Source of the DNA: a virus
Reading direction: 5' to 3' (one strand)
Length of the DNA: 64,000 bases
IMG/VR virus record: IMGVR_UViG_3300034101_003554
Span: 1 to 64,000 of that record
Shown: positions 30,290-63,231 of the stretch, in pieces
Position numbering within the stretch: the first letter of the stretch is position 1
Layout of the letters: every line of letters starts with the position of its first letter
Notes under the pieces: generated by a model
What the model was told of the DNA's origin: nothing
The model's database searches: none
Seen by the model: the letters and a program-made list of their open reading frames with translations, nothing else
Made by a program: the position numbers and the translations under genes

Positions 30290-31672
30290 TTACTTTAGTT
30301 CATATTGGTGAAAAGTAACCTCATAAAACATTACAGGGTAATACTTTTTTTCTTTATACATTTGAGGTCTTCTTAAACTCCTATCAACACACAACCTACC
30401 AGTTGTTTTATATTGTTCTAGTGCGTTAGCGCTACTAGCTTTATATATTGTACCCATATCTATGTTATCAATGATTAATTCCCTACCACTGATAACTGCT
30501 GCCACTTTTGATTTTCCATTGAATTCTGTAGGTGTAATAACAGGGAGTATATTTTTATATTTAATCATTGTTTCCTCATCGACACCCCAAAATAAACCGG
30601 GTTGTCCTTCCATTTTTAATTGTACACCTGGTACTGAAAATTTTTCGTCTTGTTGACCCCTAAAAATTGGAAGTGTTAGTAGACCTATATACGTCCCATC
30701 GGCAAGGTTAATTTTTTCTTTTGGTGGGGTAGGTTCAAATGTGGTTTCAGAATCTGAACTAGTTAATTGTGGAATAAAATCCATTCTCCTAAAAGTTGGA
30801 CCAATTTCTGCTGGGTTTGCACTTCCATCTTGATTTAAATGGTTTACTACACGTAATATAGATTTACCACCATTATCATTTAGTTTAAGTATACCCATTA
30901 TTTTATCCATTAAAGATTTATCAGTAAAAACTTGAGCTAACCTTGGTGCACTATTTTTAATTGTATTTAAAAAAATATTATAAGAAACTTTAGCTCTTTG
31001 TGTTGCTAACCAATCATTTCTTTGAAATAAATTTGTTATACCGTCAAAAACAATATTAAATCCATTATTTTGGTGGTCAGCAGTAATTGTTGCGTCAACA
31101 AAACTAGGGGGACTTCCATCAGCGTGACCTTCAATGATAAAACCATTACCTAAAAATTTTAAAATAGCATTTTTATCTCTACCATTAGTTAAATATACTT
31201 TATTCATTATTTCGACTAATCTTTTTGCCTCTTCTTCCAATTGTTTAACAACAACACTAGTTGGTGTTATTAGATTATTACCAAATTGATTATTTGCATT
31301 AAATGTAAATGTTTGACCTGGAACTGAAATTGGTGGTTTTTGAGTACCCGGAATTGTAGTTTTTGATTTCCATCCTCCACCAAGTCCTGCTAAAACACTT
31401 GAAAATTTCAGGCTAAATTTTTGTTCATTATAAATAACTCCTCTAGCTTGATAAAAATTTAAGTCCCCCTTCATAGACTCAGCCCAATTTGAAAAATCCA
31501 TTTGGAAAAATCCTTCTCTACCTAATTCAACAGCATTCTTTACTGCCCACCCAAGTGGATCATGTTCATTCAAATAAGTCCTTTTTACTTGACTTTCAGT
31601 CATAAGTTGTCCAGGTTTGTATCCCAATAGGAATTTTAATCTATTTAATTCTTCGTTTAAATTATTCTTCAT
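30290..31672 (-). CDS. Leader-bearing protein with an OmpA-C-like motif
   Basis: LNEELNR leader; IIEGHADG ... NDWLATQRA. Confidence 0.6.
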   Translation of the reverse strand: MKNNLNEELNRLKFLLGYKPGQLMTESQVKRTYLNEHDPLGWAVKNAVELGREGFFQMDFSNWAESMKGDLNFYQARGVIYNEQKFSLKFSSVLAGLGGGWKSKTTIPGTQKPPISVPGQTFTFNANNQFGNNLITPTSVVVKQLEEEAKRLVEIMNKVYLTNGRDKNAILKFLGNGFIIEGHADGSPPSFVDATITADHQNNGFNIVFDGITNLFQRNDWLATQRAKVSYNIFLNTIKNSAPRLAQVFTDKSLMDKIMGILKLNDNGGKSILRVVNHLNQDGSANPAEIGPTFRRMDFIPQLTSSDSETTFEPTPPKEKINLADGTYIGLLTLPIFRGQQDEKFSVPGVQLKMEGQPGLFWGVDEETMIKYKNILPVITPTEFNGKSKVAAVISGRELIIDNIDMGTIYKASSANALEQYKTTGRLCVDRSLRRPQMYKEKKYYPVMFYEVTFHQYELK

Positions 31673-31712
31673 ATTTTTTTTTATTTATAAATATATTAAT
31701 TTTTAAAAAAAG

Positions 31713-31744
31713 AAAAGGAGAAGTAGCGAATTTCTCCTTTTTTT
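31713..31744. terminator. Bidirectional terminator whose loop matches 23S rRNA H71 sequence
   Basis: aaaaggagaa-gtagcgaat-ttctcctttt. Confidence 0.7.
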
Positions 31745-31791
31745 GTTACCATAACTAGTAACGGTCCTAAAAGTCCTCCTAAGAGGTTAGA

Positions 31792-32325
31792 TTATTCTCC
31801 CTTAACCAAGGCCAAACATCTTTTAAGATATTCTTTTGCTCTTGGTGAAGGTGTGTATTCGTCATCTTTTGTTTGGAGATTTAATACTCTTTCAATGTCT
31901 TTAACAAGTTCAGTTCCATGTTCATTTTCTTTATACAATTCAATTATCTTGTCCATAGCTTTATTACATTGATTTGATGTTTCATCGTAATAGTTTTTAT
32001 TTCTGAACTTATTTAAATGGTGCATCATATTATAAGCTAAATGAGAACCTCCATCTTTAACATCTTTGAATAATCTAATATTATTAAGAATACCCAAAGT
32101 ATCAACCATTGAGTTTACCCCAAGTTTTCTTTTGTTTACACCTGGTGCGTAGTTATCATATTCATCAGCAGTACCAACAATTTCATCCAATGGAATTACA
32201 TTTTCTGGAACACAACGAGGTGGTGTATCAGTTTTTTCTTTTGAATTTTCATTATTTGAGTTTTCCAATAATTTTTTTCTGATAACTCGTCTAATGTCGG
32301 ATTCGTTTATTATTATTCTTTTCAT
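31792..32325 (-). CDS. Hypothetical protein with IxE leader
   Basis: MKRIIINESDIRRVIRKKLLE. Confidence 0.85.
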   Translation of the reverse strand: MKRIIINESDIRRVIRKKLLENSNNENSKEKTDTPPRCVPENVIPLDEIVGTADEYDNYAPGVNKRKLGVNSMVDTLGILNNIRLFKDVKDGGSHLAYNMMHHLNKFRNKNYYDETSNQCNKAMDKIIELYKENEHGTELVKDIERVLNLQTKDDEYTPSPRAKEYLKRCLALVKGE

Positions 32326-32354
32326 AAATTTTATTTTATAAATATTACAATTAT

Positions 32355-33932: not shown

Positions 33933-34005
33933 AATATTATTTTTATTTTATAAATATAATTGTAAATAAAAAAACCCCATATATAAATGAGGTTTTTGTC
34001 AGTCT

Positions 34006-39451: not shown

Positions 39452-39525
39452 TGTAAAGAAACCTGTAAGGTAGTGCTTACATGGGATAAACTCGACTAAA
39501 AGAAAGGGAGGTATCCAACATCTAC

Positions 39526-62220: not shown

Positions 62221-63231
62221 ATGGAAAGAAAATTAGCGAGCATACAAATAGTAAAAGAAGTTAGACCAATCGTTGGGGCTGACGCTATAGAAGTTGTTAG
62301 AATAAACAACTGGGATGTTGTGTCCAAAAAAGGAGAATACAAAGCTGGAGACTTTTGTATCTATTGTGAAATTGACTCCTTCTTACCCATTAAAGAAGAA
62401 TTTGAATTCTTAAGAAAAACATCATACAAAAAAATGTCTGATGGTAGTGAAGGATTTAGATTGAAAACAATAAGATTAAGAGGACAATTAAGTCAAGGTC
62501 TATTGTTACCAATAAGTGTTCTTCCAATTGATATGGAAATAACTGAAGGAGAAGATGTAACTGAAATGTTGGGTATATTTAAATACGAACCCCCAATTCC
62601 AGCAGAACTTCAAGGTAAAGTTAAAGGTATGTTTCCATCTTTTATAAGAAAAACAGATGAAGAACGTATCCAAAACTTATCAAGTGAATACGAAAATATC
62701 AGATTGTCTGGTAAGGCATTTTATGTCACTGAGAAGTTGGATGGATCGAGTGCTACATTCTATTACAAGGATGGTGTATTTGGGGTATGTTCAAGAAATC
62801 TTGAGCTATTGGAGACTGAGGGTAATTCCTTTTGGAAAATTGCAAGAGAATTGAATTTAGAGGATTCTTTATCTAAATTGGGTTATAATATATGTGTTCA
62901 AGGTGAAATCATTGGAGAAGGAATCCAGGGTAACCCATACAAGATAAAAGGTCAAACAGTTAAATTCTTTAACGCATTTAATATTGATGAACAAAAAAAT
63001 ATCCCATTTACTAAATTCCTAATGTTAATGGAAGATTTGGGTTTAAAAACAGTTCCAATATTGGATTACGAATTTGTACTTCCAAAATCAATTGATGAAT
63101 TATTGTTATTTGCTGAAGATAAATCTCAACTTAATGGGAACTTTGATAGGGAAGGTGTTGTTATAAGAGGATATGATAGAAAAATATCATTCAAAGTTAT
63201 ATCAAACAAATTTTTGTTAAACGAAAAATAA
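62221..63231 (+). CDS. ATP-dependent RNA ligase, DRB0094/Rnl5-like (N-terminal OB fold)
   Basis: RKLASIQ, LRGQLSQGL, KTDEERIQN, TEKLDGSS, QGE, EGVV, SFKVIS. Confidence 0.9.
   Translation: MERKLASIQIVKEVRPIVGADAIEVVRINNWDVVSKKGEYKAGDFCIYCEIDSFLPIKEEFEFLRKTSYKKMSDGSEGFRLKTIRLRGQLSQGLLLPISVLPIDMEITEGEDVTEMLGIFKYEPPIPAELQGKVKGMFPSFIRKTDEERIQNLSSEYENIRLSGKAFYVTEKLDGSSATFYYKDGVFGVCSRNLELLETEGNSFWKIARELNLEDSLSKLGYNICVQGEIIGEGIQGNPYKIKGQTVKFFNAFNIDEQKNIPFTKFLMLMEDLGLKTVPILDYEFVLPKSIDELLLFAEDKSQLNGNFDREGVVIRGYDRKISFKVISNKFLLNEK

Follow-up and report, generated by a model that had tools for sequence, protein, structure and literature searches.

The window analysed here is the first 64 kb (64,000 nt) of a 141-kb IMG/VR virus record from a giant lake phage, a record estimated by CheckV to be 48% complete and whose relatives reach 290-320 kb. 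The window has ~29% G+C and contains 24 tRNA genes and one group I intron. The region of interest is a 119-nt spacer between two ORFs, 31792-32325 (177 aa) and 30290-31672 (460 aa), both of which are on the minus strand, as an earlier sequence-only reading of the locus had held. No family was found for either ORF in Pfam or PHROG, and the 177-aa product, a phage protein of unassigned function, belongs only to viral hypothetical clusters in the Atlas. The gene upstream of the 177-aa gene encodes an SGNH-esterase / peptidoglycan-binding / lytic transglycosylase protein, and a DnaK homologue is encoded nearby. Conservation of the downstream 460-aa gene was looked for in relatives and not found, and a BLAST search of the locus against cultured phages returned no match.

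A promoter-like motif, TATTTATA (the core of ATATTTATAAAATAAAA), lies on the minus strand at 32337-32344, 12 nt 5' of the ATG of the 177-aa gene. The same type of motif is present at 31686-31693, ahead of the 460-aa gene (ATG at 31672), where it marks the end of the unit, and a motif search located another at 33949-33956 for a third consecutive minus-strand gene; in all three genes ATATTTATAAA(A)TAAAA stands 12-20 nt ahead of the ATG. There are 34 copies of TATTTATA in the window, compared with 19.5 +/- 4.4 in shuffles, and relatives have a similar promoter-like motif 3' of the terminator described below. The motif contains TATAAATA, which we take to be T4-late-like, and we infer a promoter role for it. 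Since each of the three consecutive genes is preceded by its own promoter-like motif, the 177-aa gene looks monocistronic, with motif, ORF, element and terminator as its parts. Transcription would begin at the gene's own motif and end at the terminator at ~31705, and the last ~85 nt of the transcript would form a small structured RNA, either as the 3' UTR or after processing.

The element occupies 31705-31791 of the minus strand, in the 3' UTR of the 177-aa gene, and consists, in order, of a small hairpin, an 8-nt single-stranded box, a second hairpin (hairpin b), an A-rich spacer and an intrinsic terminator. Hairpin 1 (31775-31786; CCUC, loop UUAG, GAGG) is present in only part of the family, with 79% of its cells paired in the alignment, and other lineages have a different GC-rich hairpin at the same position. 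Box 1, UUAGGACC (31770-31763, within a segment spanning 31760-31770), is single-stranded and corresponds to the invariant alignment columns UUAGGAYC; its mean unpaired probability in predicted ensembles was 0.65 in the window (0.49 across the family). Hairpin b (31745-31762) has a 7-bp stem and the apex GUUA (31755-31752), which is retained in nearly all variants, and the stem is supported by covariation, with changes from G-C to A-U and from A-U to G-C via G.U. This covarying helix (GUUAC.../...GUAAC), which was missed in the sequence-only reading, is not a mirror image of helix 69 (H69) of 23S rRNA, and it partly masks the antisense segment described below. The spacer (31738-31744) consists of seven A residues and is purine-rich in every family member.

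The terminator stem-loop (31717-31737) has the stem GGAGAA/UUCUCC and a 9-nt loop (31731-31723) that includes the invariant UCGCUAC. Compensatory changes have occurred at seven of its nine pairs while the loop has stayed invariant, and the loop's unpaired probability in predicted ensembles was 0.96. In 86 of 100 unique elements the loop contains a UUCG that fits YUNR, the other 14 having AUCG, and the loop's site is single both in the window and in the 141-kb record. The U-run that follows (UUUUCUUUUUUU; 31705-31716) corresponds to conserved T columns and is the likely 3' end of the RNA. A simple terminator scanner misses this terminator because the 9-nt loop is longer than its 8-nt limit. A pseudoknot between box 1 and the terminator loop was considered and rejected by inspection, as there are only three complementary bases.

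Searching with the 177-aa protein identified 140 viral relatives, of which 80 loci with 69-88% identity were kept. Conservation in relatives had been set beforehand as a test of the element, and the element was found directly 3' of the stop codon in 75 of these 80 loci. An alignment of the 39 distinct element sequences (A1) has invariant columns in three places only, UUAGGA.C, UCGCUAC and the U-run. The three-helix structure is paired in 88.7% of cells, versus 38-63% with slid partners, and its covariation score was 0.374 versus 0.185 in shuffles, none of 500 of which scored as high. A covariance model of the element (R1) identified one strong copy per genome (107, 88 and 73 bits, next best <=34), two of these genomes being complete, and a search of the 141-kb record revealed neither a second copy nor an internal partner. 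We regard it as all but certain that the element is a conserved functional RNA. In a sister lineage (L075-L078) there was no element 3' of the 177-aa gene, and in another relative (L030) a natural deletion takes out the element together with the start of the next gene; R1 found no copy in the L075-L078 and L030 fragments, which represent genomes that are 4-48% complete.

The sequence-only reading had proposed that a transcript of this region would be antisense to 23S rRNA, and we compared the element with E. coli rrlH (L081), positions 1906-1937. The 23S segment quoted in that reading matches the real gene, and it contains what is presumably the I-CeuI site. The two plus-strand strings that had been singled out, a 22-mer and a 10-mer, are indeed found at 31749-31770 and 31721-31730, respectively. 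Compared with 23S 1907-1928, the 22-mer has one extra base and a single transition (G1910 to A), so that its minus-strand counterpart (31770-31749) forms a computed 21-22 pairs with the rRNA, with one bulged C and one G.U, close to the ~21 bp originally estimated. Its RNAduplex energy was -29.9 kcal/mol, versus -19.6 +/- 2.1 kcal/mol for shuffled controls, none of 200 of which did as well. The match of the second string stood for 8 nt, 31723-31730 being identical to 23S 1930-1937 (and bases 31730-31723 its perfect complement), but it did not hold for the full 10-mer, which lacks one G of the rRNA. The phage copy of the 23S segment is interrupted and its order is permuted; comparison with rrlH confirmed the antisense relationship to helix 69 and the adjacent segment in this permuted order, and folding agreed that the second segment is displayed in the terminator hairpin loop.

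The three invariant unpaired motifs of the element are complementary to adjacent 23S stretches (E. coli 1921-28, 1911-14 and 1930-36). Box 1 plus the next GUU is a perfect complement of 23S 1918-1928, the apex and 3' strand of hairpin b complement 1908-1914, and box 1 and hairpin b together could form ~22 bp with 1907-1928. The 8-nt and 7-nt invariant boxes have one perfect site each in the whole rrn operon, at 1921 and 1930, side by side. As single boxes they are energetically unexceptional (12 of 200 and 97 of 200 shuffles, respectively, do as well), and the evidential weight lies in the adjacency of the boxes, their conservation and their recurrence rather than in the energy of either box. 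Single-sequence statistics are, moreover, inflated because the finding was chosen for its match. Duplexes were tested by segment, as RNAduplex over-extends through large loops when given the whole element, and in 12 of 14 distinct variants the best duplex across 16S, 23S and 5S rRNA fell at 23S 1906-1929, with 18-22 bp. The variable hairpin region, which was left free in the search pattern described below, is enriched for complements of 23S 1906-1917 (mean longest run 4.59 versus 3.32 +/- 0.38 in control windows).

A comparison with Bacteroidota 23S rRNA had also been suggested, and the target region in Pedobacter kyungheensis proved identical to that of E. coli, as did that in an alphaproteobacterial MAG and in rRNA contigs of Listeria, Staphylococcus, Paenibacillus and Acinetobacter. 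Departures from complementarity do occur: C1920 faces an A in one clade, and A1919 faces a C in one sequence. Over the whole class ~6 transitions are of the wobble-tolerated kind versus 2 that are not, numbers that include too few independent events for statistics. Overall, we think it likely that complementarity to 23S rRNA is what selection maintains in these sequences. An origin as an rRNA gene fragment or pseudogene was rejected on the basis of the absence of a match to LSU rRNA models, the permuted order, the restriction of the match to ~30 nt and the structured conservation.

The same 23S complementarity was found on unrelated RNA scaffolds, always on the gene-sense or tRNA strand. In the Vibrio phages PWH3a-P1, qdvp001, R16F and 10AMN there is a 24-nt antisense to 23S 1907-1930, whose two departures from perfect antisense are both G.U-compatible. 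In this form two hairpins come after the antisense, the second of which has a covarying stem and a loop that keeps the complement of 1929-1936, and the whole lies on the strand of the flanking genes, just upstream of same-strand tRNA genes. R1 assigned only 23.5 bits to a Vibrio-type genome, and at a place other than the element, and the class is therefore united by complementarity and not by one covariance model. Two further forms emerged from a scan of viral contigs for H69 antisense. One has the layout of the lake phage element with a perfect 21-nt antisense, 3' of the gene for the ribonucleotide reductase large subunit (nrdA). In the other, which is collinear, a 28-nt antisense (1907-1934, one wobble) is succeeded by a terminator that works in one direction only, and the form precedes tRNA genes by 35-70 nt.

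With a strict search pattern built on the permuted layout, at least 120 viral contigs matched. A stricter pattern had four matches among 185,579 bacterial and archaeal species (one genome each), three of which look like chance. The fourth is genuine and is on a 3.7-kb, 32%-GC contig (L132; CAYYOB010000102.1), probably of phage origin, whose binning with a Polynucleobacter MAG is a weak hint as to the host. Among the matches listed, 62 of 121 viral loci follow a homologue of the 177-aa gene, 10 follow nrdA (in two lineages that are 39% identical) and the remainder follow assorted or unknown genes, and there was no neighbouring gene or protein partner shared across lineages. In their distribution, the 23S-antisense elements are phage-specific.

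Several features of these other loci deserve mention in their own right. The element is directly 3' of nrdA in at least two diverged lineages (L109:1518-3404, L148, L174, L177, L183, L209 and L221), a position that may link it to nucleotide supply. The collinear and Vibrio-type antisense sequences are immediately upstream of same-strand tRNAs (L129:7441-7569, L119:1978-2103, L099:795-958 and L093:329-640), and these antisense RNAs may be made and processed together with the adjoining tRNAs. In L093 (OP793884.1 93201-93373) the two tRNAs annotated in GenBank are on the opposite strand to those predicted by ARAGORN and have their names swapped. In L172 (6697-7095) a gene for a cyclic-phosphate-processing receiver domain (PF20274, an RNA-repair context) is directly upstream of the element. 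A degenerate, collinear-looking 23S antisense within a predicted ORF on the opposite strand is a candidate element in L098, L100, L116 and L128. Lastly, in the window itself, 39500-39517 resembles the complement of the 3' end of 16S rRNA ahead of a terminator, and the lake phage may carry more than one rRNA-complementary RNA.

Given that the complementarity was found in many unrelated phages and in essentially no bacterial genome, phages probably use the element to pair with host 23S rRNA. Our preferred reading, toward which we lean somewhat more than we doubt it, is that the phage antisense RNA would pair with the host 23S at helix 69-70 and act as a blocker. More tentative, and in our judgement a little short of an even prospect, is the broader proposal that many large phages make a dedicated anti-ribosomal RNA, by which they would control ribosome assembly, subunit joining or rRNA fate during infection through pairing with helix 69-70 in large subunits that are nascent or free.

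As a blocker, the RNA would have been selected to base-pair with host 23S over H69 and the strand 3' of it (E. coli 1907-1937) through three points of contact. Box 1 would meet 23S 1921-28, the hairpin b apex would meet the loop and 5' strand of H69, and the terminator loop would meet 23S 1930-36. The motifs are displayed in a way that would suit nucleation, box 1 being single-stranded, GUUA lying at a hairpin apex opposite the H69 loop and the last motif occupying a large terminator loop, and we infer that pairing would spread from the contact points to ~20 bp by the opening of hairpin b and H69. The main boxes are permuted in the lake phage and collinear in another lineage; it therefore seems that complementarity alone matters and not the exact geometry. 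The likely targets would be 23S molecules in which this region is still free, that is nascent or assembling pre-50S particles or the exposed H69 of free 50S subunits, which we favour because the region is engaged in 70S ribosomes. The expected effect would be interference with the folding of domain IV or with the H69 subunit bridge.

There are, however, points that count against this proposal. Most of 1919-1937 is paired or buried in the mature 50S subunit, so invasion is not obviously feasible. In addition, a 9-nt loop cannot make 8 bp unstrained, box 1 is only about half accessible in the predicted ensembles, and, since phages need ribosomes, their gain from attacking them is not evident. 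Lysates of PWH3a-P1 release abundant rRNA (bioRxiv 10.1101/2021.07.02.450638), which makes wholesale destruction of ribosomes unlikely for that phage. A point in favour of the proposal is the synthetic precedent of a PNA directed at H69, which halts translation and prevents E. coli from growing (Kulik 2017, as cited in PMC12828698).

We consider it unlikely, though the most serious of the alternatives, that the invariant motifs bind a phage or host protein or another RNA. The element would then be an ordinary sRNA, a regulator or a stabiliser of the 3' end, and its match to 23S coincidental or a by-product. A conserved loop and a single-stranded box would suit a protein as well, box 1 includes a GGA motif, the A-rich spacer, terminator and U-tail resemble sRNA chaperone-binding modules, and in the lake phage family the element is tightly linked to one gene. 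That linkage does not extend to the other lineages, which have no neighbouring gene in common, and the unrelated scaffolds have in common only the rRNA-complementary bases, up to 28 contiguous nt. Furthermore, there is no other complementary site in the 141-kb record, and by a rough estimate two conserved boxes would fall on adjacent rRNA sites by chance about once in 10,000.

Somewhat less probable again, in our view, is that the RNA pairs with 23S rRNA as an enzyme guide or splint rather than as a steric blocker. As a guide, a 20-28 bp duplex would mark new 23S rRNA for RNase III cleavage and decay and supply nucleotides to phage DNA synthesis; as a splint, the RNA would hold together 23S broken by a host ribotoxin so that an RNA ligase could act on it, although we know of no ribotoxin that cuts at 1907-1937. 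Duplexes of 19-28 bp fit the requirements of double-strand-specific enzymes, but in many family members the long duplex is interrupted by internal loops. That the element stands 3' of nrdA in at least two lineages would accord with a nucleotide-supply role, but there is no such context in 111 of the 121 loci among the matches listed, and no ribonucleotide reductase was found in the 141-kb record. Also on the side of this reading are the PF20274 receiver domain gene upstream of the element in one lineage and, in the lake phage, an Rnl2-type RNA ligase domain (PF09414; window 62719-63201, in a 346-aa open frame) and a Ro60-like gene with candidate Y RNAs; against it, an RNA ligase family was identified in only two of four carrier genomes (the lake phage and its relative G001, not G002 or the Vibrio phage) and RtcB in none of the four. 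The release of bulk rRNA upon lysis by PWH3a-P1 (bioRxiv 10.1101/2021.07.02.450638) also counts against this reading. A role as a guide for RNase III or a splint for RNA ligase is possible, but a consistent co-occurrence of genes was not found for it.

The sequence-only reading had also allowed for a decoy made from the plus strand, and this did not fare well. In such a case the plus-strand RNA would mimic H69-H71 against an H69-binding enzyme or toxin, or the DNA itself would be a decoy for an I-CeuI-like endonuclease. Both strands fold with similar energies, and a terminator hairpin between an A-run and a T-run could work in both directions, but the collinear form has a one-directional terminator, and the minus-strand stems include G.U pairs. 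In every clear case the flanking genes or tRNAs are on the strand that is antisense to the rRNA. Read on the rRNA-like strand, the changes G1910 to A and U1926 to C would disrupt an H69 copy, and the plus strand as such a copy would have an A.C mismatch in its stem; in the antisense RNA, and only there, these changes are G.U wobbles. The permuted order means that the plus strand is no copy of the rRNA. Given the strand of the genes and tRNAs and the wobble-compatible substitutions, we therefore judge a plus-strand decoy to be very improbable. Slighter still is the prospect that an ordinary terminator region resembles antisense rRNA by chance: very many windows were scanned and short matches to 4.5 kb of rRNA are common, but it is exactly the matching bases that are conserved, they recur in unrelated scaffolds and phages contrast with bacteria in having them.

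Helix 69 is the central bridge between the ribosomal subunits, touches tRNAs as well as release and recycling factors, and is among the most conserved RNA sequences known. If pairing of the phage RNA with this helix is borne out, viruses would be acting on the host ribosome by RNA-RNA pairing, a mode undescribed for bacteria, and this could explain part of the host takeover by large phages rich in translation genes. The element would then be the first known case of a natural RNA that uses Watson-Crick pairing to target the catalytic-era core of bacterial rRNA, and its site would be a naturally validated antisense target for antibacterials. The question can be put to a direct test, since some Vibrio phages with a member of this class can be cultivated on a host that grows fast in the laboratory (Vibrio natriegens for PWH3a-P1).

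With regard to known systems, no Rfam 15 family reached its gathering threshold in the region (an unrelated plastid 3' UTR model scored highest, at 26.7 bits against a cut-off of 56.8), and full-text literature searches found no natural phage RNA complementary to 23S rRNA. The closest likeness is to 3'-UTR-derived sRNAs such as CpxQ and SroC and to the ncRNAs of phage PhiKZ (PMC8545117), with which the element has in common its location at an mRNA 3' end, a Rho-independent terminator, a conserved single-stranded seed upstream of hairpins and, putatively, pairing in trans. As in such sRNAs, there is a Rho-independent 3' terminator and there are conserved accessible seeds, UUAGGAYC and UCGCUAC, which have perfect sites in 23S rRNA. 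Unlike those sRNAs, its complementary partner is the functional core of 23S rRNA and not an mRNA, and the complementarity is tripartite and up to 21-28 nt, one part being in the terminator loop.

The placement of target-complementary bases in hairpin loops is also a feature of CopA/CopT of plasmid R1 and RNA I/RNA II of ColE1, and most terminator loops of the element contain a UUCG of the YUNR type. By analogy, since H69 is a hairpin too, the RNA could conceivably make a loop-loop kissing contact with it that then extends into a longer helix. In contrast to these antisense RNAs, the element is encoded in trans, far from the gene of its target, which would be host rRNA, and there is no rRNA gene in the phage record with which it could be a cis-antisense pair. 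Antisense to H69 has a man-made parallel in the PNAs of Kulik et al. 2017, which, as that work is cited in PMC12828698, show that the site is reachable and that blocking it stops translation and growth. Those PNAs, in the same account, are short and uncharged, whereas the phage RNA is natural, folded, ~85 nt long and covers H69 plus 1930-37.

Recognition of adjacent target segments by separate parts of one RNA is likewise known from H/ACA and C/D guides and from EBS1/EBS2 of group II introns, and the order of segments in the element, with the 5' box against the 5' target segment, is that of EBS2/EBS1. It is the opposite of the order in H/ACA guides, however, and the element lacks H, ACA, C and D boxes as well as a pseudouridylation pocket; an Rfam scan of the element found no match to a guide RNA and neither an intron nor a ribozyme core. 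A viral 3' UTR structure has been proposed to contact the large subunit in the case of the tRNA-shaped structure of turnip crinkle virus, but such plant virus elements act by mimicry of shape, in eukaryotes, and enhance translation, while the contact here would be by Watson-Crick pairing with bacterial rRNA. The element is a small RNA of the base-pairing kind that ends in a terminator, and what is new is its target, its tripartite display and its spread among phages.
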